Origin: a bacterium
GTDB lineage: Bacteria > UBP15 > UBA6099 > JAJRTR01
Direction: 5' to 3'
DNA: 58,995 bases
Assembly (NCBI GenBank): GCA_024278215.1
Contig: JAJRTR010000138.1
Coordinates: 67,747-126,741, forward strand
Shown here: piece by piece, positions 4,150 to 16,041 of the stretch
Layout: the number at the start of each line of letters is the position of its first letter
Position numbering within the stretch: position 1 is the first letter of the stretch
Program-made: the position numbers and the translations under genes
Notes under the pieces: model-generated
Told to the model about the DNA's origin: nothing
The model's database searches: none
The model's input: the letters and a program-made list of their open reading frames with translations, nothing else

Positions 4150-4977
4150 TCACCTCGGATTAACAAGTGTCATGCCGCCGGTGATATAAAGTATCTGCCC
4201 TGTGCAGTAACTTGATTGTTCCGATGCGAGGAATGCGACAAGATTGGCGATGTCTTCAGGAAGCGCAATGCGTTTAAGCGGCACATGGCTCTCTTCTTCC
4301 TTTCTTATGTCGTCAATATCCTTACCGAACGCATCCGCCTTAAGCTGCCAGCCCATGCGCTCCATCTCGGTGTCGACTTTGCCGGGACATATCGCATTCA
4401 CACGGATATTGTTGGCGGAAAGTTCGAGCGCCATGACTTCCGTCAGCGCCATGACGCCGGCCTTTGCGGCGCAATATGCGGCCATGAACGGTGCCGGATA
4501 CCTGCCGCGCCATGACGCCGTGTTGATTATACTTCCGCCCCGGTTTTGTTTTGTCATCACTTTTGCGACAGCAGCCGACACGATAAATGTGCCCGTGAGA
4601 TTGACTTCGAGCATCTTTCGCCAGTCGGACGGCGAGATCATATATGAAAGGTTCATTCCGAAAGCCGCACCCGCGTTATTGCATAAGATATGCACTCCGC
4701 CGAGCTCGGATACAACTGTATCCACCATCGTACCGACCTGTTCGGCGTCTGTTATGTCCGCGCAGACAGCAACCGCCTTCCTGCCGAGTTTTTCTATTTC
4801 ACTTTTGAGTTCCAGGAGCCCCTGCCGGTTCTTGTCGTTTTCGTCCCCTGCGCTGCAAAGGTCCGTGACGCCGACATCCGCACCCTCCCGGGCCAGTCGC
4901 AACGCCAGTGCATGACCTATCCCCTTTGAACTGGCGCAACCTGTTACTATCGCTGTTTTACCGCTCAGATCGTACAT
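4150..4977 (-). CDS. Short-chain dehydrogenase/reductase (SDR)
   Basis: TGxxxxxGIG, NNAG, YCAAK catalytic motif, VNAICPG. Confidence 0.93.
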   Translation of the reverse strand: MYDLSGKTAIVTGCASSKGIGHALALRLAREGADVGVTDLCSAGDENDKNRQGLLELKSEIEKLGRKAVAVCADITDAEQVGTMVDTVVSELGGVHILCNNAGAAFGMNLSYMISPSDWRKMLEVNLTGTFIVSAAVAKVMTKQNRGGSIINTASWRGRYPAPFMAAYCAAKAGVMALTEVMALELSANNIRVNAICPGKVDTEMERMGWQLKADAFGKDIDDIRKEEESHVPLKRIALPEDIANLVAFLASEQSSYCTGQILYITGGMTLVNPR

Positions 4978-5046
4978 TTATTTACCGTCCCTATGTATAG
5001 ATGTAGTTGACAATCCACAAAAATAAAAAATCAAAGACAGAAGTCA

Positions 5047-6192
5047 TTACAATCCCATCTGTCTGCCGATGATCTCTTTCATTACCTCTGTCGTGCCTGC
5101 ATATATTGTCTGAACGCGGGCATTCAGGAAATCCTTCGCAATATTGTATTCCATCATATATCCATAGCCGCCGTGCAGTTGGAGCGCCTCGTCGCAAGCG
5201 CGCTTGAGCATCTCCGTCGTCCACCATTTCGCCATGCACGTTTCCGTCAGGACATTTTTCCCGGCGATGTGTTCCACTATGAGCCGGTCTACGAAAGCGC
5301 GGCCGATTTCTACTTCCGTCGCCATCTCGGCAAGCTTGAATCTCGTGTTCTGAAACTTCGACAGCGGTTTGCCGAACAGCACCCTTTCCTTCGTATACTT
5401 CATCGCATCCTTCAGCACCTGTTCGGCTCCGGCCTGCGCGGCGATGGAGCACACAAGACGTTCCTGTTGCAATTTCTGCATGAGATATATAAACCCCATG
5501 CCTTCGTCTCCCAGCAGATTCGCCTTCGGCACGCGGCAGTCCTCGAAAAACAATTCGGCTGTGTCCTGCGCGTGCATACCGATCTTCTCAAGATTGCGTC
5601 CTTTTTCAAAACCCGGCGTGCCTGCTTCGACAACAATAAGGGAAACACCCGTGTGCGGCGGGTCAGCTTTCGTGTCCGTTTTTACAGCGACAACGCATAC
5701 ATCGCACAGGATTCCGTTTGAAATAAATGTTTTCTGGCCGTTGATAATGTAGTCGTCGCCATCCTTAACTGCTGTAGTTTTTATCGACGCGAGATCGGAG
5801 CCTGCGCCGGGCTCAGTCATTGCCACCGCGCTTATCAGTTCGCCTGAAGCGCAGCCGGGCAGCCACTTCTTTTTCTGCTCTTCGTTGCCGAAGCTGAATA
5901 TATAAGGAACCACTACATCGCTGTGCAGCCCCATCATAAAACCGGAGTTCCTCGCGTAGACACATTCCTCGTTGATGATGGTCGAATAAAGAAAGTCTAC
6001 TCCCGAGCCGCCGTATTCCTCAGGCAGCCACGGGCACAGGAAACCCATCTCGCCCGCTTTTTGGTAGAGTTCCCTCGGGCATATTCCATCCTTTTCCCAC
6101 TGCTCATGAAACGGCACCACTTCTTTCTCGAGAAACTTCCTCACTGCATCCCTGAAAATATTATGCTCTTCCTGAAATAGAGTTCTATCCAT
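5047..6192 (-). CDS. Acyl-CoA dehydrogenase (long-chain type)
   Basis: [39 protein letters not shown]. Confidence 0.95.
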
Positions 6193-6632: not shown

Positions 6633-6810
6633 GAGCCAATTGCAAAAATCTGATTCGGCTGCGGTCGGCTGCTATTGTCCATAGCTGCGTTGTCGGTGCG
6701 AAATCATCCTCGACGTACTCTACAAGTACGCCTGCGAGGATTTTACACCTCTGCTTTGCCCTGAACAATTTCGCTCGACCTCGCTACGAACATAATTTTG
6801 CAATTGGCTC
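6633..6810 (-). mobile_element. ~178-bp MITE (family A), full copy
   Basis: TIRs; perfect 4-bp target duplication GTGC. Confidence 0.92.
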
Positions 6811-6957
6811 GTGCGTTTTACAGAATTTCGGTTATTTCTGAAAAACGCACAGGATGCTGTGTCCGGTTATACCCATCCCTATCCGTGGGGATTGTAAAGA
6901 TGTTGCTATGACTGAAGTCTTACGAATGCAAACAAACCAAAACCGCAGAAAGACAGG

Positions 6958-8547
6958 ATGGCCACCATGACAGGTAGTCGCGAAACGTCACGAACAACCT
7001 GGCTCGCCGTCTCCACCGTCAGCGCCCTCGCGTTCGCAATACGATGGTTTCGAGCGGACGAGGCTTTCGGCGGTTTCCACTCATTCAACGAGGCATGGTA
7101 TTCCACAGTAGCACGCAACTACGATTCAATCAGTTCCCTGTTCTTTCCCATCTCTCCTTACGGCAAAATCGACTTCAATGTCAGTCCGTTCTTTTCGTGG
7201 CTGTTGTTCGCCGCCGGGAGCGTTTCAGGTTTCGATGAATCCACGCTCAGATTCGTTCCGATTATTTTCAGCGTGTTGACCATTCCTGTCATTTATGTAA
7301 TCGGTCGGCGTTTTTTCGGTGTGGCAGGCGGCTTTTGCGCGGCGGCTTTTTATGCCTTCGCGCCTGTCAGCGTCATGGTCGGCCGCAACGTGCAGACCGA
7401 CGCGGTATACATTTTCTTTATGCTGCTGTCCCTGGTGTTTTACCTGCGCTACAGAGATGACGACCTCGGCATATCCAATATGGCGATATCCGGGTTCCTG
7501 TTCGGAATCGGGTTCCTCACAAAGCAGTTCGCGGCGATTATCCTGCCTGCAATCGTCGTGTGGGAAATATTTCGCGAGCGCGGCATCAAGTGGTTCGGGT
7601 GGGGACACCTCCTTTTCGGATTGTGCGCATTGTGCGCGGCGGGTCCGTATTTCATCTACCATATCGTCAACGACCTTGGTGCCATGGCCGGTTCGCAGTC
7701 TTCCCTTTCGGCAAGCCAGTTTGTTCCTTTGTCGATAGCCTCCGTGATCTACCTGCTCCCTGAATACTTCTGGGGATTATCTCCATTCCTTGCAGTCCTT
7801 TCCGCAATTGCGTTTGTCTATTATATTATCAAGAGAAATGCAGGCGGGCGGCTCGCGCTTGCTGCTACGATCTTTTTCAACTGGTTCTTTCTCCACTGGC
7901 ATGGGCACAGCTACTATCTGCTTTTTGCCGCACCCTTCCTGTGCCTTATGGCGGGCGGGATGATCGGATCAATAAAAAATAAAACAATCGTGGCGGCACT
8001 CGCATCCGTTATCTGTGCACTTTCGCTCATACAGGCTGTCGCGATGCTGTGCGAAGTCAAGTATGGATTCAGCGAGTTCCCGGCAGTTGCAGAAGTTGTC
8101 TCCGAGGGCGCGCGCGACCCGCTGTTGATCGCCGCCGACGGTGTCGCGGGCAGCTACTATCCGGTTTTGAAATATTATGCCCCTGAAATACAACTGATAA
8201 CCGAAAAAGATATAGTGAATACAGACAGGGACAGTTTCGCGCCGCAAGAGGGAGTCAGTCCTTATATTGTCGGATTCGTGCCGGACGACGTTAAGAGATT
8301 CCCGCCGCTGCAATTGATTGTAAAAAGAAAAGAATTCGGACTGTTCATATTCGGATACCGGGTGCGCACAATAATGATGGACGAACATTTTTTTATGATA
8401 GAAGATATAAAAATAAAAAAGAATGCAGACCCGCTCGCTTTCGGAGTCTATGGCACCGGATATGTACCGAGCCTCACCCTTGGCGTGATTCCGCCTGGCG
8501 GCACAGTGCCGATAAAAGACGGGCGGATCGACTTCAGAAGGCAATAA
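6958..8547 (+). CDS. GT-C fold membrane glycosyltransferase (ArnT/PMT, GT39/GT83-like)
   Basis: Many TM segments, NEAWY loop motif, xLRFVPxxF, GFLTKQ, C-terminal extracytoplasmic domain. Confidence 0.85.
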   Translation: MATMTGSRETSRTTWLAVSTVSALAFAIRWFRADEAFGGFHSFNEAWYSTVARNYDSISSLFFPISPYGKIDFNVSPFFSWLLFAAGSVSGFDESTLRFVPIIFSVLTIPVIYVIGRRFFGVAGGFCAAAFYAFAPVSVMVGRNVQTDAVYIFFMLLSLVFYLRYRDDDLGISNMAISGFLFGIGFLTKQFAAIILPAIVVWEIFRERGIKWFGWGHLLFGLCALCAAGPYFIYHIVNDLGAMAGSQSSLSASQFVPLSIASVIYLLPEYFWGLSPFLAVLSAIAFVYYIIKRNAGGRLALAATIFFNWFFLHWHGHSYYLLFAAPFLCLMAGGMIGSIKNKTIVAALASVICALSLIQAVAMLCEVKYGFSEFPAVAEVVSEGARDPLLIAADGVAGSYYPVLKYYAPEIQLITEKDIVNTDRDSFAPQEGVSPYIVGFVPDDVKRFPPLQLIVKRKEFGLFIFGYRVRTIMMDEHFFMIEDIKIKKNADPLAFGVYGTGYVPSLTLGVIPPGGTVPIKDGRIDFRRQ

Positions 8548-8572
8548 CCCGCATATTTCACCAATGCGGGCC
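8545..8572 (-). repeat. Solo right end/hairpin of family B element
   Basis: TAACCCGCATATTTCACCAATGCGGGCC beginning at the glycosyltransferase TAA stop. Confidence 0.85.
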
Positions 8573-9388
8573 GAAAATTATTCCATGAATTTTCCATATA
8601 CATCTTATTACCGCTTCATCTCTACTCTTTATATTTCTATCTCGTTTTTTCCCCTCAATAAGTCCAAATAACATCGGTGTATATCTAATATCAATTGGAT
8701 ATAAATTCTAAATAACCGGAAGATACACAATGGTTTCTATCCTCGATTATCGTGTATATTTCTTAGTGATATTCATAATAACACATTATTTTTGAATTAA
8801 CAATCATGATATATTAAGATAGATAGTTCATATCTTACATATTATATTTTATAACCTGTATTATGTCTATAATAAACGAAAATTTCATTTGAGGGCATAC
8901 TAAACCCACAATATAATCATACAATAATATTATGGGTTTTGAAGTAAATGCTAAATATAGTTGTACAGAATAGTATCGAATCCAAGTGCAAACTGCTCAT
9001 ATACGAAAATATCGCAAAATGTCCATATTTATTTATGTAATGTATATATATTATATCTTAATTATAATCATATAACATAATATTTGTGATATATTCGGCT
9101 ATGCAATTACCGCAACGCTATTGCTGTCGCTAAGAGGACAAAGATGTTTTTGAGGTCAAAAAAGAACTATCACTTATATCATATATATATAACATAATCC
9201 AATTATCAACTGATTGCAAAAGACATGTTGTTTTGTATTTACATAATCTAATTATCAAGTAGTTCACGATTATCATTTTTTGTGAACAAAGGGTGTATTG
9301 ATTGTTTTGATAAATAGGTATATTATATTCTGAATTATTCGTTTGCAATCGGCTTAATAACAAATAATCTTCAGGAGTGTAAAGTACG

Positions 9389-10111
9389 ATGAAAGAGAAG
9401 TCCGTATTAGTTATTGCAGCTCACCCTGATGACGCTGATTTCTATTGTGGTGGAACCCTGGTAAAATGGATACAAGAGGGCGCAAAGGTAAATTATGTAA
9501 TATGTACTGACGGGGCATTTGGGAGTGAAGACGGCAGCATTACTACGGAAGAGCTTGTCGAATTGCGTAGACGCGAGCAGAAAGCTGCAAATCAGATAAT
9601 AGGTGTCCGATCAACTGTATTTCTTAATTATCCCGATATGGGACTTGTTGGCGGAGAAACTCTTAGAAAAGAGTTGGCAAGAGAGATAAGAAGGTTCAAA
9701 CCACAGATCATTATGTCTTTTGATCCGTGGCTGAAATATGAATTGCATCCCGATCATACTGTATCAGGCATTGAGACAATTTACGCACGGCTTGCAGCAA
9801 AAATGCCTTTAAAATATAAGGATCTTGAGGATGAGGGATATTCGGCCTGGCAGGGTGTGGATGAATTTTACCTGTTTAAAACTGACCATCCCGATACCTG
9901 GATAGAAACCGAAGACTATCTGAGAGCAAAAATCGAAGCATTGAAATGCCACAAATCCCAATTCGGTCATATTATTCAAGATGAAAGTCAAGCTGAATAT
10001 CTGTTAAGGGAGTTGTCACACAAACACCCGGAAACGGGAAAAGTTGCGGAATGCTTCAAAGTTATTAAACTTGATGGCATTGAGGGTTTAAAGAGCTATA
10101 TAAAGTTTTAG
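9389..10111 (+). CDS. PIG-L/LmbE family deacetylase
   Basis: AHPDD, RRREQ, HPDH, HKSQ motifs; AGGAG RBS. Confidence 0.92.
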   Translation: MKEKSVLVIAAHPDDADFYCGGTLVKWIQEGAKVNYVICTDGAFGSEDGSITTEELVELRRREQKAANQIIGVRSTVFLNYPDMGLVGGETLRKELAREIRRFKPQIIMSFDPWLKYELHPDHTVSGIETIYARLAAKMPLKYKDLEDEGYSAWQGVDEFYLFKTDHPDTWIETEDYLRAKIEALKCHKSQFGHIIQDESQAEYLLRELSHKHPETGKVAECFKVIKLDGIEGLKSYIKF

Positions 10112-10324: not shown

Positions 10325-10415
10325 AATTCCGGGGACATGACTGATAATTAGGATAATTGATAATTAGGGACAGGCACCTATTGATCTAATGGCAGGGGTA
10401 AGGGATAATATAAAC

Positions 10416-10647
10416 ATGCCGAGAACAGCGAGAATAGTAGCAGTGGGATACCCACATCATGTTACACAACGTGGAAATAACCGTCAGGATATATTTTTAG
10501 CAGATGAAGACAGAAGCAGATACCTTAGGCAGGCCGCTGGGTAGCGACAACTTCATAAGTAAACTCGAAACGAGGATTGGGCGAAGACTTCGTCCCTTGC
10601 CAGTCGGCAGGCCCAAAAAGGAGCATAAACAGGTGACTGTCCCATAA
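10416..10647 (+). pseudogene. Internally deleted REP-associated tyrosine transposase (RAYT, Y1_Tnp)
   Basis: MPRTARIVAVGYPHHVTQRGNNRQDIFLADEDRSRYL joined out of frame to GRPLGSDNFISKLETRIGRRLRPLPVGRPKK; HUH core missing. Confidence 0.88.
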
Positions 10648-10754
10648 GCATTAACTTAAGCGCGAAATGGGGTATTATGGCGAACTATAGCGCACATTCT
10701 TTGCGCATTATCGCATAAGAATGCGACAAAAACCCCGTTAAGTTAACGCCTATG
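10643..10754 (+). mobile_element. 112-bp IS4/IS231-like MITE (family C), copy 1
   Basis: TIRs CATAAGCATTAACTTAA / TTAAGTTAACGCCTATG; perfect 11-bp TSD GGTGACTGTCC. Confidence 0.9.
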
Positions 10755-10875
10755 GGTGACTGTCCCTAGTATTTAATCCGCCCATTTTTAGGGGGGAAGT
10801 TCAGCTTAAGGGCCTAATTAAGTTTTCAAGGTGCAGCTTCACCTGGCCAAAGTGTTGCGCAGAAAGAAGTTTACA

Positions 10876-11424
10876 CTATCTTAAAAGGCGGGGGTTTGTG
10901 GTTAGAATCTCAATGCCACAATTTTGAAAATCGCCATCGTTAGTCATTAATTTCAAGCTTTTCTGTTTGCAAATATCAATAAGAATAGCATCGTTAAAAT
11001 CCACTTTTCCTGATGAAAAATCAGTTAATATCTGATTTAGACCCAGTTCGTTAGCTGGGACTGAGTGAACTTTGCAAAAGCTAACAATTTTTATTGCAAA
11101 GGTTTTAGCAGAAGCTGCGACTTTCAGAAAATCCTGCGAATTTCTGAAATCCTTAAATTCATGATGGTTTGATTTATAATTACCATCCCACTCAATTCTC
11201 ATATATCGATTTAGGTACTCACTTAGTACCATTGGATCGAGAATCGGTTGAGCATCTGTTGAAATAAGATTAGAAAAAGCTTTCGAGTATTGATCGGCAA
11301 ATCGGTGGCGCGGTTTTACTGGTGCAGGAAATAGATAAAGCCAAATGTTGGTATCAACAAGGATTTGCTCTCCCTTGCTGAAAGAATAGGAAGAAAGGTC
11401 ATAAGCTTTATTCATCATCATCAT
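10876..11424 (-). CDS. PIN-domain nuclease
   Basis: ILVDTNIWLY, VLSEY, DFNDA, TNDGDF acidic active-site pattern; start overlaps upstream stop (could be any of four tandem ATGs). Confidence 0.88.
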   Translation of the reverse strand: MMMMNKAYDLSSYSFSKGEQILVDTNIWLYLFPAPVKPRHRFADQYSKAFSNLISTDAQPILDPMVLSEYLNRYMRIEWDGNYKSNHHEFKDFRNSQDFLKVAASAKTFAIKIVSFCKVHSVPANELGLNQILTDFSSGKVDFNDAILIDICKQKSLKLMTNDGDFQNCGIEILTTNPRLLR

Positions 11425-11767
11425 CCTCCTCCTTCAGCCAGGCATCATCATAAGATTCTTTATTGGAATAATACTTTTTAGCATTGTCGACAACTCGCTT
11501 CAAAAGCTCCATATCATCCGGTGAAAGACCTTCAACCTTTAAGTGAGTACGTATAGCTTCTTCGCTAAGAGATTCGTAGAGTTGGCCAATTGCCACATTA
11601 AGAAAAAGAGAAATCAACATGGTTGCATTTTCAAACGAAATTGTGATTTTCCTTCCAGATAAAATTAATTGTTTTGTTTTTTCAAAGACTTTCTGTCCAT
11701 CCTCAGCAGATATGCACAAAGGAGTCCCTATTAAATCCGTCACTTTTATTGTTATTCTTTCATTCAT
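11408..11767 (-). CDS. STAS-like domain protein (DUF4325-type)
   Basis: ISAEDGQKVF...ITISFENATMLISLFLNVAIGQL pattern; acidic tail; AGGAG RBS. Confidence 0.82.
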   Translation of the reverse strand: MNERITIKVTDLIGTPLCISAEDGQKVFEKTKQLILSGRKITISFENATMLISLFLNVAIGQLYESLSEEAIRTHLKVEGLSPDDMELLKRVVDNAKKYYSNKESYDDAWLKEEDDDDE

Positions 11768-11782
11768 TGGTTTCTCCTAATA

Positions 11783-12652
11783 TTAAAATATATCGTTATG
11801 ATCTATTTCTGAACTTAAACGATAACTGCTTGTATCTTCTGTATTAATTTCAATATTGACGCATGTCCCCGGAAAATCATTATCCATTTTTTGGTATAAC
11901 TCATTACTGGCAGTAAACTCGTAATACCCAAACCGTGAAATAATCTGAAGTTTTCCTCTATTTAATTTGATAAAATCTTTAAGTAATTTCAGTCCAAGTC
12001 CTCCCGGCAGATTTCCTGTCTTTGTGGTATGTCCTTCCATCACAGCCCATTTTAGAGCATTTACGGAATTAATCTTTCTTCCTGTAAAGTTCCTGACATT
12101 TTCTCTTATGCCAATACCTGCATCAGAGATAGTAAAATCAAGTCGATGTTTTGTAGGATAAAACTGACCACAGACAAATATACCTGATTTTGATTTTGAA
12201 TGAAACGTCGCATTAATAAAAATTTCTAAAAGGCTTTGCCTGAAACGCTTAGTAAGTACATCAGACATGCGAGGAATTCCCTTCCCCTTCATATAATAAT
12301 CAAGATACTCGGAAAACTGTTCATCCGCATTCAATTTGAAAATCTTAAAAGGCAAGGTTGTCTGATTCGTATCAGGGATTGCATTATCACCGAAGAGTGT
12401 AAGGAAACGATTTCTTTTTAAAATTTCCCTAATTTTGCGTGGAGTATTTAATAAATTGACATCATTTAATTCATTTCGGAGCCGTGCAATGACAGAATAG
12501 AGTGGAGCTGCCATATTGGCTTCAAAAAAAGAGCAATCAGAAAAATCCAAATCAACAGAATCAAAAAGCAGATATTTTGTGTTTCTGAAAACTTCAGCAA
12601 TACTATTAAATCCTGACATATCGCTTCGTATTGTACCCATATTTAGTTTCAT
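11783..12652 (-). CDS. HATPase_c (histidine-kinase/anti-sigma-like ATPase) with N-terminal STAS-like segment
   Basis: N-box EIFINATFHS, G1 DAGIGI, G2 GGLGL, FPGT; N-terminal VDLDFSDCSFF. Confidence 0.85.
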   Translation of the reverse strand: MKLNMGTIRSDMSGFNSIAEVFRNTKYLLFDSVDLDFSDCSFFEANMAAPLYSVIARLRNELNDVNLLNTPRKIREILKRNRFLTLFGDNAIPDTNQTTLPFKIFKLNADEQFSEYLDYYMKGKGIPRMSDVLTKRFRQSLLEIFINATFHSKSKSGIFVCGQFYPTKHRLDFTISDAGIGIRENVRNFTGRKINSVNALKWAVMEGHTTKTGNLPGGLGLKLLKDFIKLNRGKLQIISRFGYYEFTASNELYQKMDNDFPGTCVNIEINTEDTSSYRLSSEIDHNDIF

Positions 12653-12659
12653 ATTTAGA

Positions 12660-12804
12660 CTACTTCCCGCGTCTCGTTACCGGTCGGTCGTACCACATGA
12701 GGAACTTGTGGGCTTCATAAAGGACCTTGTTCGGAATCTTTGCGGGCCACAGCTATGATCGTTCCGTAGTCTCGCTCCTGCCAGGTCTTCTTGAACCCGG
12801 CGCG
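12660..12804 (-). pseudogene. Frameshifted C-terminal remnant resembling a DNA methyltransferase
   Basis: Manual translation RAGFKKTWQERDYGTIIAVARK / KIPNKVLYEAHKFLMWYDRPVTRRGK*; resemblance to defence-island methylase C-termini is from memory, not searched. Confidence 0.55.
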
Positions 12805-12809
12805 ACCGG

Positions 12810-13186
12810 CTTTACAGGATTCATTTCAATGTATCTTGTTGCGCATAGGAGATGTGCCCAGTCCATTATATACGACGTAAAACGCCCCTGCCAGAAGTGT
12901 CCCCTCCAATTCTCACGGAAATTCATATACTGCTAATATCCACGATCTGTTTCCCCTATTGCCTGTCGCAGTCCATCCTCTGCCTGAGGCACAGCTACCA
13001 GATGCACATGGTTTGGCATAGATAATATGGCCAGATATCTACATCGTATTTATCACACCAATAAGTCATCAGTTCCAGATTGTGTTGTCGGCCTTAATTT
13101 CCGAAGAATGTGCTCATCCTGCGACTTACACGCTGCGTTACATGATGCGTATATTTCGGCGCAACTGCTCTCGCTAATCTTAGCAT
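12810..13186 (-). pseudogene. Decayed RAYT (Y1_Tnp HUH transposase), 3' truncated
   Basis: MLRLARAVAPKYTHHVTQR...MPNHVHLVAVP...WRGHFWQGRF...RYIEMNPVK with two in-frame stops and one frameshift. Confidence 0.88.
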
Positions 13187-13367: not shown

Positions 13368-13369
13368 CG

Positions 13370-13544
13370 ATAATTAGAATAATTAGGGACAGGCACCTAT
13401 AAGCGTTAACTTAAGCGCGAAATGGGGTATTATGGCGAACTATAGCGCACATTTTTTGCACAGTATCGCATAAGAATGCGACAAAATCCCCGTTAAGTTA
13501 ACGCCTATGGGACAGGCACCTATTTAACTAATGGCAGGGGTAAG
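13370..13544 (+). repeat. Third mini-RAYT left end (REP plus upstream region) interrupted by MITE
   Basis: TAATTAGAATAATTAGGGACAGGCACC...TATTTAACTAATGGCAGGGGTAAGG matches 10345-10403. Confidence 0.8.
13398..13509 (+). mobile_element. 112-bp IS4/IS231-like MITE (family C), copy 2
   Basis: Near-identical to 10643-10754; perfect 11-bp TSD GGACAGGCACC. Confidence 0.9.
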
Positions 13545-13547
13545 GTA

Positions 13548-14246
13548 TTATCGGAACTTCTTGCCCATCACTATATTGCGCACATTATCCCGACACCACT
13601 TTTCGTAGAATCTTGTTCTGCGGGAATACAATTGGCGATAACCGCGAGCGTGATAAAACCGCAAAGCTTTCTTGTTGAGGCTGGTGGTCTGAAAGTGTAC
13701 TCCGGCTGAGCCGTACGAGCGGAGATGCTTTTCCGCGGCTTGCATCAGCAGGGTGCCGGTTCCGCGGGACTGGAATTCCGGCGCGACGTTTATGTGCAGG
13801 GTTGACGGGAATTCGCGGTAGAAGGTTGGAAAAGAGAATTCACCGCGCAGGGCGGATGCGATGTATCTGTAGTAAAAGACGGCGTCGCGTTTTGTGAACT
13901 TCGCGAGCGCGGGTATTTCCCTGAGGGTCCGACTGAAAAAGTATTTTATCCTCGGCATCCGCAGTCGCTCGGACTGCGGGGCGATGAATATGTATCCCAT
14001 CGTTTGTCCGCAGGATTCCGCCACCATGAGATTCGCGAGTTCTTTGTTGAAAAAACAGCAAGTGTCCAGGTCGACGAAAAGCCGTCTGTTGTCGACGATC
14101 CCTTCGAGTGTTTTTCCGGCGAACCCTGTGCGGAAGCAGATGTCTCTCACTGCGGCTGTGTGTCGTTGGGAACAGGGAACAATCGCCGCCGTGCCGCCTG
14201 TTGTTCCGGCGCATCCCGCTCCATTGTTTTTCTTTGTTTCGCTCAC
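13548..14246 (-). CDS. GNAT family N-acetyltransferase
   Basis: LHINVAPEFQSRGTG acetyl-CoA motif, NxKALRFYxxxGY. Confidence 0.88.
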   Translation of the reverse strand: MSETKKNNGAGCAGTTGGTAAIVPCSQRHTAAVRDICFRTGFAGKTLEGIVDNRRLFVDLDTCCFFNKELANLMVAESCGQTMGYIFIAPQSERLRMPRIKYFFSRTLREIPALAKFTKRDAVFYYRYIASALRGEFSFPTFYREFPSTLHINVAPEFQSRGTGTLLMQAAEKHLRSYGSAGVHFQTTSLNKKALRFYHARGYRQLYSRRTRFYEKWCRDNVRNIVMGKKFR

Positions 14247-14293
14247 TTGTTCCTTGCCGCGCTTTCAAGTTGTAAACGGTGCCGTTCCTGTCC

Positions 14294-15247
14294 TCACTCG
14301 ATAGGCAGCCGTTCGAAAAGCTCGTTTTTGCGCACGAAGCCGCGCATGAGCCGGCCAAGTTCAGGCGTTACTATCTGGGAGCGGTAGAGTCGTATCGCGT
14401 CGTATTTTTTATCCCTCACATCATCTTCCATCGGAAACTGAAGCCAGCCGAAAATGAAGGTATGTGAAAACGGTGGGAGAAGGTATTCCTCCGGTTTCAA
14501 GCCGCTGGGCCTGGGGTAGAAACGATGGTGTGTGAGATAGGCGAGCAGCTCGGGTTTCGGGACCGCGCCGTTGCCGGTATAAAGCTCCTTCGCAGCCTGG
14601 TTTATAAACTCGAAAGTATATTTGTGATCCGGGTGTCTGTCTTCAGGATGAGGAGAAACGATAATGGTCGGTTTAAAGCTTTGTAAAATATGCTTTATAT
14701 CCCGCAGAACATTTTCTCCCGCGTATATTGTCCCCGGCTCATAGCACATTTTATAGGGAGAACTCGAGTCTTTCGTCGCATGAGAACGGAAAGGGTTATG
14801 GACCGGCCAGTTTGTTGTGTAAAGCGCTTTAATCCCTCTGTCAGGGTAGCAAAGGAATAGCACGTCATCGCGCGAAACACCTATGAAATCCATAGCTTTC
14901 AGGGATTCCTGCTGCCGGTTTTCGCCGGCTTTTATGTAATCTTTTGCCGACGGGTGAATTGCTTTAAATTCCATCTCGGTCGAAAGAAGGTTGTTGTCGC
15001 CGTTTGTCACAATGACAACTTTTACAGCTACGCCCAGTTCGACGGCCTTCATCAGCAAGCCGCCGGCGCCCAGGGTTTCGTCGTCGCAATGAGGAGCGAA
15101 CACAATTATACGGTCGTTTCCGGTAAGGGGTTTCATCTCGTCGATGACATTGATATTCAGACTGGGTGTGCGGATGTATATAATCAGGGACGACACCGCG
15201 AGGACCACAGTCAGGACTTCTACAAAATACAGCAGTTTGCGTTTCAT
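14294..15247 (-). CDS. PIG-L family deacetylase, membrane-anchored
   Basis: N-terminal TM; APHCDDE, TNGD, RQQE, HPDH, YRSQ. Confidence 0.9.
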   Translation of the reverse strand: MKRKLLYFVEVLTVVLAVSSLIIYIRTPSLNINVIDEMKPLTGNDRIIVFAPHCDDETLGAGGLLMKAVELGVAVKVVIVTNGDNNLLSTEMEFKAIHPSAKDYIKAGENRQQESLKAMDFIGVSRDDVLFLCYPDRGIKALYTTNWPVHNPFRSHATKDSSSPYKMCYEPGTIYAGENVLRDIKHILQSFKPTIIVSPHPEDRHPDHKYTFEFINQAAKELYTGNGAVPKPELLAYLTHHRFYPRPSGLKPEEYLLPPFSHTFIFGWLQFPMEDDVRDKKYDAIRLYRSQIVTPELGRLMRGFVRKNELFERLPIE

Positions 15248-15393
15248 GTGATGAATTGCCTCCGTGACTGTTCATCGTAGTTTGCAACTTCCTCATGACG
15301 ACGAATGGAATTCCCCGGTGCCACGATCAGGAATCGAAGCGGCAGCATCAACCGGAGTTTCCGCGTTTTCGTGTAGCTGCTGATATGAGAATG

Positions 15394-16041
15394 TCAGGCG
15401 TTTTTCAACTGAGAAATATTTTTTGGAGTCCCTGAAACAAGGAATGTGTCTCCACGCTCGAAGACATCGTCAGGACCCGGAGTGCCGTTTGTTTGCGCCC
15501 CTCTCTTTATCGCTATTACATTGACATTGAATTTGTTGCGAAGCTGGAGTTCGGAAAGAGATTTTCCAGCCATATTATCGGACACCTGCATTTCGGCGAT
15601 GCTCAGTCTGTCGCCGAATTCTATGAAATCGATCAGGTCGGGATTGGCTATTGCCCTGGCGACTTTGATACCGATCTCGTTTTCGGGGTAAACGATTTTG
15701 TCGGCGCCTATTTTGTCGAGTATTATGCCGTGATAGTTGGTAATCGCGCGGGAAATAACTTTTTCGACACCGATCTCTTTCAGCATGAGTGTTGTGAGAA
15801 TCGACGCTTCCACGTTCTCGCCTATTCCCACAACAGCGGTTTGAAAAGTTTTCAGGCCGGCTTGAATCAGCGCGTCTTTGTTTGTCGAATCGAGGATAAG
15901 TGCGTGGGTTACGGAATCTACCACTTCGTTTACCATCAGCTCTTTCTTGTCGATCGCGAGCACATCGTATCCAATTTGCATTAGTTCCTGGACCACACCT
16001 ATTCCAAACCTTCCGAGACCGATTACAGCGACTTTCTCCAT
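15394..16041 (-). CDS. ktrA: Ktr/Trk potassium uptake RCK subunit
   Basis: VIGLGRFG Rossmann motif, TrkA-N plus TrkA-C domains; adjacent to ktrB. Confidence 0.92.
   Translation of the reverse strand: MEKVAVIGLGRFGIGVVQELMQIGYDVLAIDKKELMVNEVVDSVTHALILDSTNKDALIQAGLKTFQTAVVGIGENVEASILTTLMLKEIGVEKVISRAITNYHGIILDKIGADKIVYPENEIGIKVARAIANPDLIDFIEFGDRLSIAEMQVSDNMAGKSLSELQLRNKFNVNVIAIKRGAQTNGTPGPDDVFERGDTFLVSGTPKNISQLKNA

Follow-up and report, generated by a model that had tools for sequence, protein, structure and literature searches.

A vapKSC toxin-antitoxin cassette, apparently intact and functional, in an uncultured bacterium of the phylum UBP15

With a kinase, an antitoxin and a toxin encoded side by side, VapKSC is a three-component toxin-antitoxin (TA) and anti-phage system described by Chambers, Rani, Min, Villa and Corbett (EMBO J 2026, PMC13373217; a bioRxiv version is dated February 2026). 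The vapKSC operon was defined by a CapK-like kinase combining STAS and GHKL domains (VapK), a STAS protein extended by a short C-terminal region (VapS) and the PIN-domain protein VapC, and 289 such operons were reported, 36% of them with an immune gene within 10 kb (PMC13373217). Here, we describe three genes located at positions 10,876 to 12,652 of a window of 58,995 nucleotides, that is, the whole stretch of DNA analysed (contig JAJRTR010000138.1, positions 67,747 to 126,741, assembly GCA_024278215.1), from a bacterium of the uncultured phylum UBP15. This trio is, very probably, an intact and apparently functional copy of vapKSC. A sequence-only reading of the same DNA had presented it as a candidate uncharacterised system; the system was already in print in 2026, and the window locus is one more member of it, from an uncultured phylum.

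Toxicity, neutralisation and phage protection were shown for the system of Escherichia sp. E4736 only (PMC13373217). There, VapC is toxic and the D28A substitution abolishes toxicity, while VapS alone neutralises VapC, an activity that the ΔC and S48E mutants no longer have. The crystal structure (PDB 9z7o), solved at 3.4 Å, is a VapS2VapC2 complex in which S48 is buried at the interface and the VapS C-terminus lies close to the VapC active site, from which VapS does not displace the catalytic Mg2+; the phosphomimetic S48E mutant of VapS no longer binds VapC (PMC13373217). Protection of about 2 logs against phage Bas42 was lost with VapC D28A, VapS S48A and VapK F54A, the latter replacing a conserved Phe at the single-stranded DNA (ssDNA) site predicted between its STAS domain and its kinase domain (PMC13373217). 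A PIN subgroup "transcriptionally coupled to DUF4325" had been noted earlier by Matelska et al. (2017, PMC5499597), in a paper whose available text mentions no kinase and proposes no mechanism. None of the papers found to use the term DUF4325 was on this system, and the term does not occur in the available text of Chambers et al.

The three genes of the window are as follows:

11783..12652, minus strand: vapK, 289 amino acids (aa), with an N-terminal STAS domain (residues ~1-90) and a SpoIIAB-like GHKL Ser kinase domain (~96-274)
11408..11767, minus strand: vapS, 119 aa, a STAS-like (DUF4325) antitoxin with phospho-acceptor Ser53 and an acidic C-terminal tail
10876..11424, minus strand: vapC, 182 aa, a VapC-like PIN-domain toxin

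As noted in the sequence-only reading, these co-oriented genes are tightly packed, with 15 nt between vapK and vapS and a 17-nt overlap between vapS and vapC, the end of vapS (GAA TAA) falling inside the start of vapC (ATG ATG ATG ATG AAT AAA). The order of kinase, STAS protein and PIN protein on one strand is that of VapKSC. Their AT-richness was also borne out, with a GC content of 0.33-0.38 in the trio vs 0.47-0.55 in the coding flanks (6750-8250 and 13500-15500) and lower values still in intergenic DNA at 8500-9500 (0.25-0.31). Pfam searches identified DUF4325 "STAS-like" in the 119-aa protein (1.1e-14), PIN in the 182-aa protein (2e-08) and HATPase_c in the 289-aa protein (6.4e-05, 23.8 bits, under the 26.4-bit gathering score). 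Together with fold comparisons, these matches support the kinase, STAS and PIN calls made initially, which had overlooked the kinase protein's own N-terminal STAS domain. All three reading frames are open, and each conserved catalytic or acceptor residue is retained in the window copy.

PADLOC-DB v2.0.0, which had been suggested as a way to find an existing name, recognised no system among the three window proteins; VapKSC is not in that release, though the system is already in print. NCBIfam gave histidine-kinase and VapC matches only for the trio, all far under the cut-off, and Rfam detected no family at the gathering threshold over the whole window. The kinase weakly matched the DrmA model of PADLOC-DB (1.4e-06, profile positions 144-277), which was set aside as a common HATPase-like stretch.

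The antitoxin and the toxin both match the solved Escherichia complex. A VapS-like profile built from alignment A4 matched chain 9z7o_A ("Escherichia VapS") at 1.4e-27, and a PIN profile built from alignment A5 matched 9z7o_C ("Escherichia VapC") at 7.8e-24. Single window sequences were sufficient to recover the same chains by phmmer (1.1e-15 for VapS and 2.1e-07 for VapC). The Ser that the sequence-only reading had singled out in LISLFL is Ser53 of the window protein ("LISLFLN"). It aligns with residue 66 of 9z7o_A, which would correspond to VapS S48 if, as we infer from the chain length, the chain carries an 18-residue tag. Conservation of this position reaches 90% or more, with almost no variation in alignment A4: of the 67 related loci with the gene, only L057 (Thr) and the degenerate L064 (Pro) lack a Ser there. 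Beyond the STAS core, window VapS extends for about 20 residues. As for the toxin, window D24 aligns with residue 28 of 9z7o_C, the same number as the D28 mutated by Chambers et al. The acidic catalytic residues expected of a PIN nuclease were indeed present and conserved in relatives (D24, E69, D142, D145 and D165), and these residues, together with D163, are invariant among the 35 sequences of alignment A5. Window VapC is a candidate member of the PIN.4 subgroup of Matelska et al. (2017).

For VapK, domain assignments were derived from AlphaFold2 models of the whole protein (predicted local distance difference test score, pLDDT, 93.9) and of residues 1-100 taken separately (pLDDT 90.2). In VIA-align comparisons, the modelled kinase domain (residues 96-274) had SpoIIAB as its best structural match (1l0o_A, Z 10.9, root-mean-square deviation (rmsd) 2.8 Å, 136/141 residues). 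Other anti-sigma kinases scored lower (UsfX Z 7.9, RsbW Z 7.6; Z 7.3-7.9 for UsfX, RsbW and the RsbW-like domain of Rv1364c), and histidine-kinase catalytic domains did not exceed Z 8.5. The N-terminal model was closest to RsbV (6m36_B, Z 10.7, rmsd 1.9 Å, 85 residues), with STAS matches over residues 1-88 and nearly all of ranks 1-28 occupied by STAS proteins. The alignment of this domain with the 119-aa STAS-like protein by hhalign was weak (probability 12.8%, E 0.0022), so that the STAS assignment is taken from the fold search. Foldseek searches of the PDB with the whole VapK model returned histidine-kinase and GHKL matches only, with poor global TM scores. The predicted architecture, a STAS domain beginning at residue 1 and followed by a GHKL kinase, with no N-terminal helix-turn-helix (HTH), is that of VapK. 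The N, G1 and G2 boxes recognised at the outset are present and conserved in relatives (E143/N147/H151, D177xGxG181 and G217GLGL, respectively). Within the "FFEANM" motif of the fused STAS domain, Ala45 is invariant and, in our own positional reading, may stand where the acceptor Ser would be; Phe43 of the same motif is near-invariant, with at least 90% conservation.

The published strain list provides a further link. Dataset EV3 of Chambers et al. (part 1 of 3, complemented by a term search over 11 supplementary files) names Nitrosomonas eutropha Nm57, Desulfamplus magnetovallimortis and Elusimicrobia CG08, the sources of our loci L016, L006 and L060, as well as Deinococcus gobiensis I-0 (L078), Nitrosococcus watsoni C-113 and Akkermansia muciniphila (PMC13373217). 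The window VapK, VapS and VapC are 67, 61 and 68% identical, respectively, to the proteins of the N. eutropha locus, and relatives from the species N. watsoni (P0077/P0178) and A. muciniphila (P0074/P0185) are 67-72% identical. The trio is therefore assigned to vapKSC on the basis of the 9z7o matches of VapS and VapC, the aligned Ser53 and D24, the gene order, and the presence in Dataset EV3 of strains with proteins 61-68% identical to those of the window.

Compared with the Escherichia system, the window locus has the same K-S-C order, the same domains in all three proteins, and aligned Ser53/S48 and D24/D28 (PMC13373217). The two differ in sequence, the window proteins being about 35-40% identical to their Escherichia counterparts over aligned parts (estimated by eye from alignments), in the VapS C-terminus, which in the window is an acidic EEDDDDE tail, unaligned with the C-terminal helix of Escherichia VapS, and in their host, since that of the window belongs to a small uncultured phylum (13 genomes in the collection). 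CapK-CapS shares with it a STAS and GHKL kinase that phosphorylates a conserved Ser of a STAS-domain partner, and ssDNA activation has been shown for CapK and proposed for VapK (PMC13373217). However, an additional HTH is present at the N-terminus of CapK and a winged HTH DNA-binding domain in CapS, the pair acting as a transcriptional switch upstream of immune operons (PMC13373217), whereas the window kinase opens with its STAS domain and its 119-aa partner, with no HTH hit in Pfam, pairs with a PIN toxin; the trio is thus distinct from CapK-CapS. Type II VapBC modules are similar in having a PIN toxin gene directly after, and overlapping, that of a protein antitoxin, with the antitoxin C-terminus near the active site (PMC13373217). 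In VapKSC, by contrast, the antitoxin has a STAS fold and no DNA-binding domain, and release would proceed through phosphorylation by a third component and not through proteolysis. Consistent with this difference, Pfam detected only DUF4325/STAS-like in the gene upstream of window vapC, and none of the AbrB, ribbon-helix-helix, PhD or HTH domains of VapB-type antitoxins.

The arrangement is widely conserved. Searches with the kinase alone, in one genome per species, yielded 71 related loci, which were then compared with the three window proteins by phmmer. All three genes occur in the same order and on the same strand in 64 of the 71, in bacteria and archaea alike, the remaining seven being either cut by a contig end (L044, L049, L061, L069, L071) or degenerate (L051, L064). 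Since the query was the kinase only, linkage at this frequency is far beyond chance; the trio is conserved and is often found beside defence genes. The archaeal loci belong to Thermoplasmata (L024), Methanotrichaceae (L058), Methanosarcinales (L062) and Methanoregula (L065 and L067); six entries starting with "Methano" also occur in Dataset EV3 of Chambers et al. (PMC13373217). Six further full-length matches, found in three genomes from the search of relatives, on plasmid P5 of Deinococcus gobiensis (where the genes are annotated "ATP-binding / STAS-like / PIN"), on one IMG/VR contig and in the Streptococcus prophage Javan172, all carry the trio. A search of viral contigs with alignment A1 gave one locus. 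Word-indexed homologues numbered 727 for the kinase (the best 120 being 64-73% identical, the window's own product aside) and 337 for the PIN protein (the best 120 being 64-87% identical), with named matches to one or both in Desulfobacterales, Nitrosomonas, Nitrosococcus, Akkermansia, Spirochaeta and Acidithiobacillus. An exhaustive search with the kinase reached 2103 cluster representatives at E <= 0.001, 356 of them at E <= 1e-30; among the 150 matches listed, most are about 290 aa long.

Several of these loci deserve comment in their own right. In Javan172, the trio sits in the lysogeny module, between the repressor region and the integrase, and adjoins the latter; it is completed by an unannotated 176-aa PIN open reading frame (ORF) at positions 4535-5065 of locus L077, where the deposited record has a 39-aa ORF only. 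An unverified lead to another prophage is a Francisella pair formed by a 293-aa protein and a DUF4325 protein (table in PMC7924643). One relative (G004) carries, at positions 1117-2877 of locus L076, a distant kinase-like gene (323 aa, E 5e-18) followed by a 107-aa ORF that appears STAS/DUF4325-like by eye, and then by an ORF in which a minimal-nucleotidyltransferase-like motif, also judged by eye, takes the place of PIN; this could be a variant with another third component.

By analogy with the Escherichia system, window VapC would be a growth-arresting nuclease with RNA as its likely substrate. VapS would bind it as a 2:2 complex and hold it in an inactive state; in that complex, the interface would bury Ser53, and the C-terminal region of VapS would lie close to the active site. 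VapK, probably triggered by the ssDNA that results from DNA damage or phage infection, would phosphorylate Ser53 and so free VapC, leading to growth arrest, most likely via RNA cleavage. The sequence-only reading had proposed that a phosphorylation-controlled kinase and STAS pair gates a PIN RNase in a three-component TA or abortive-infection system. This general concept holds, while the SpoIIAB-type wiring that came with it does not, VapS being the partner that binds VapC and S48E abolishing that binding (PMC13373217).

No observation contradicts membership in vapKSC, and the following points limit it. The phosphorylation of VapS by VapK and the activation of VapK by ssDNA were inferred by Chambers et al. 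from AlphaFold 3 models and from CapK, and not observed directly; Escherichia VapK was insoluble (PMC13373217). With the window kinase profile, no match was found among PDB sequences at E <= 0.001, and the homology to VapK is drawn from the architecture, the position in the operon and the strain list of Chambers et al. instead of an alignment with Escherichia VapK; Phe43 is a candidate counterpart of F54 in the Escherichia protein. The alignment of window VapS with its Escherichia counterpart stops at residue 103 of 119 and leaves out the C-terminal tail; this tail is strongly acidic in the clade, so that blocking of the active site may differ from that in Escherichia. Upstream of the cassette, a promoter scan gave 10 sites vs 10.3 expected, consensus scans being weak evidence, especially in an uncultured phylum. 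Finally, ORF coordinates point to split or truncated genes in nine of the 71 loci (L025, L032, L051, L053, L059, L063, L064, L068, L070), which indicates that copies do decay.

The genes surrounding the related loci were surveyed with Pfam for the two nearest ORFs on each side (225 ORFs at 70 loci, L040 being omitted as a near-duplicate of L039) and with PADLOC for 95 ORFs at 26 loci preselected by Pfam hints of defence genes. This survey revealed a recurrent association with type 3 bacteriophage exclusion (BREX) systems, genes or fragments of which flank the trio in 13 of the 71 loci. At six of them (L002, L003, L004, L007, L008 and L018), PglXI and BrxHII stand on either side of the trio within a type 3 BREX operon, with BrxC upstream and PglZ downstream in L002-L004 and L008. 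PglXI is directly upstream at four others (L006, L009, L010 and L032), where other cargo or a contig end follows the trio, and BREX gene fragments are found nearby in L001, L005 and L013. Nitrosococcus and Desulfobotulus are among the sources of type 3 BREX operons with the cassette. In BREX loci, vapK starts at, or a few bases from, the pglXI stop codon, except in L002, where an ATPase gene intervenes, and brxHII starts 10-65 nt after vapC where it follows directly; this tight spacing points to read-through transcription. The trio was considered, and rejected, as a core BREX gene: among 30 PglXI loci from 401 genomes of one class, it is found downstream in three only (L081, L082 and L086), two of which are genomes of the starting set. 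These figures describe an optional BREX cargo.

Other cargo is present at the pglXI-brxHII junction, instead of or beside vapKSC, in L002, L006, L010, L011, L013, L032, L087-L089, L094 and L095. It consists mainly of AAA_15/AAA_21 ATPases (AriA/PtuA-like, HEC-01A), and also of Ppl-like proteins and a second PglXI, a variety that makes the junction look like an insertion hotspot. In L032 (2402-6001), the frame upstream of the trio spans PglXI and a match to the IS200-like Y1_Tnp (residues 368-453), a sign that a transposase may have inserted into pglXI or become fused with it. Outside BREX, defence neighbours of the trio include type I restriction enzymes (L023, L038), a type ISP/IIG enzyme (L026), AbiE (L027) and DarTG (L070). 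In L042 (1485-8262), HmaA and HmaB of an Hma system enclose the trio, a further case of embedding in a helicase/methylase defence operon.

The window cassette stands alone, with no PglXI match in its genome (G000) at E <= 1e-100 and no placement between pglXI and brxHII. One scenario, which we regard as rather unlikely, is that in its closest clade vapKSC may serve type 3 BREX as a second arm transcribed together with it, with VapK sensing ssDNA when BREX engages or is overcome by a phage and VapC acting as an abortive back-up; the window copy would then be a module cut loose and relocated through the rearrangement described below. The relation of PrrC to EcoprrI offers an analogy for such an abortive back-up.

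A first alternative, possible but doubtful, is that vapKSC is a general DNA-damage or stress addiction module whose phage protection is incidental, the window copy being maybe a selfish remnant kept by post-segregational killing. The window cassette is orphaned among housekeeping genes, as are most of the more distant loci (L037-L071), the majority of published operons lie outside the 36% near an immune gene, and the authors themselves call the boundary between immunity and stress response fuzzy (PMC13373217). Against this stand the dependence of Bas42 protection on VapC D28, VapS S48 and VapK F54 (PMC13373217), the type 3 BREX genes or fragments at 13 loci and the Hma, type I and IIG restriction-modification, AbiE and DarTG genes at others, and the occurrence of the trio in a prophage lysogeny module adjoining the integrase.

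The immediate surroundings of the window cassette bear on a second alternative. The mobile-element debris reported in the sequence-only reading was recovered as two palindromic repeats of the repetitive extragenic palindromic (REP) kind and as broken pieces of a REP-associated tyrosine transposase (RAYT) with weak matches to NF047646:

10641..10756, no strand assigned: 116-nt palindromic REP-like repeat, copy 1, downstream of vapC (family D1, inverted arms I7)
13396..13511, no strand assigned: 116-nt palindromic REP-like repeat, copy 2, upstream of the cassette, 95% identical to copy 1 (family D1, inverted arms I8)
12753..13040, minus strand: broken middle part of a RAYT, with an in-frame stop and a frameshift and weak NF047646 matches
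10389..10544, plus strand: short ORF from the ORF list, candidate transposase N-terminus, without Pfam or NCBIfam match

Shorter repeats (GGGACAGGCACCTAT) also bracket the cassette, and additional copies of ATAATTAGGGACAGGCACCTAT occur in 10340-10770 and 13369-13551; these repeats look REP/REPIN-type. The NF047646 matches of the transposase remnant are collinear and far under the cut-off (E 0.011 for profile positions 100-133, E 0.18 for 50-76), and Pfam gave nothing at E <= 0.01 for the three transposase pieces. The ORF at 10389..10544 may represent, judging from its motifs, the N-terminus of a RAYT. The pieces seem complementary, with the N-terminus and a possible C-terminal tail at 10389-10640 (plus strand) and the middle part at 13100-12750 (minus strand), 2.2 kb apart. 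Between them lies the vapKSC cassette, in a layout that could stem from an inversion or from a pair of decayed copies; no other, intact transposase copy was found in the window genome. Farther out, about 0.9 kb at 8500-9400 (GC 0.25-0.31), just upstream of a PIG-L gene, contain numerous short direct and inverted repeats, themselves AT-rich, and lack any long ORF. The window neighbours encode PIG-L deacetylases, a GNAT acetyltransferase, a PMT_2 glycosyltransferase and TrkAH.

The host assembly (4.5 Mb, 95% complete) contains one copy of the cassette. Among 40 relatives, a full-length kinase match was found in three (36-40% identity), together with one weak partial match, and proteins 73% identical occur in other phyla. 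This patchy occurrence, the single copy and the low GC content argue for horizontal acquisition. The cassette stands alone, without BREX, in an intergenic region scarred by REP and RAYT elements.

In such a setting, the trio could be an intact-looking but silent relic that lost its transcriptional context on leaving a BREX-type operon and through the REP/RAYT rearrangement. The read-through spacing of BREX-embedded relatives would fit this view, as would the DNA upstream of the window cassette, a broken transposase with no promoter signal above chance; no terminator signal above chance was found either. The scans are weak either way, however, and the three open frames have kept all conserved catalytic and acceptor residues. 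Since selection would act against a PIN toxin left unsilenced for want of its antitoxin, the intactness of all three genes argues for ongoing selection, and we hold a silent relic to be improbable.

The classical partner switches SpoIIAB/SpoIIAA and RsbW/RsbV resemble the trio in both partner folds (Z 10.9 for SpoIIAB and, for the fused STAS domain, Z 10.7 for RsbV) and in the Ser at the SpoIIAA-type acceptor position. They differ from it in several respects: the trio has no sigma factor or PP2C phosphatase, its STAS protein and not its kinase binds the output protein, and a STAS domain is fused to its kinase. Pfam scans of the 225 neighbour ORFs detected no PP2C/SpoIIE phosphatase family and no sigma factor linked to the trio, the sole sigma-70 neighbour (L050) being part of an rpoD/dnaG housekeeping pair. 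A switch of this type, in which a SpoIIAB- or RsbW-like kinase holds the PIN protein inactive until displaced by unphosphorylated STAS protein, and STAS phosphorylation restores inhibition, would find support in the best structural match of the kinase, a SpoIIAB entry with bound sigma F, but is very improbable given the VapS2VapC2 structure, the neutralisation of VapC by VapS alone, the 225 neighbour ORFs without a PP2C/SpoIIE match in Pfam, a STAS gene overlapping the PIN gene in the order of an antitoxin-toxin pair, and the loss of binding and neutralisation with S48E, which indicates that phosphorylation activates the toxin and does not silence it (PMC13373217).

Assignment of the window trio to vapKSC illustrates that a real three-component immune or TA system can be recovered from a reading of raw sequence. 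In the published description, Dataset EV3 records type 3 BREX for 6 of the 289 operons, in no more detail than "brex_type_III within 10 kb" (PMC13373217). To this, our analyses bring modest additions, namely the exact placement between pglXI and brxHII in about a dozen relatives, the junction hotspot, and the prophage, plasmid and archaeal instances. In the prophage, where the trio is part of a lysogeny module, the PIN gene lacks annotation.

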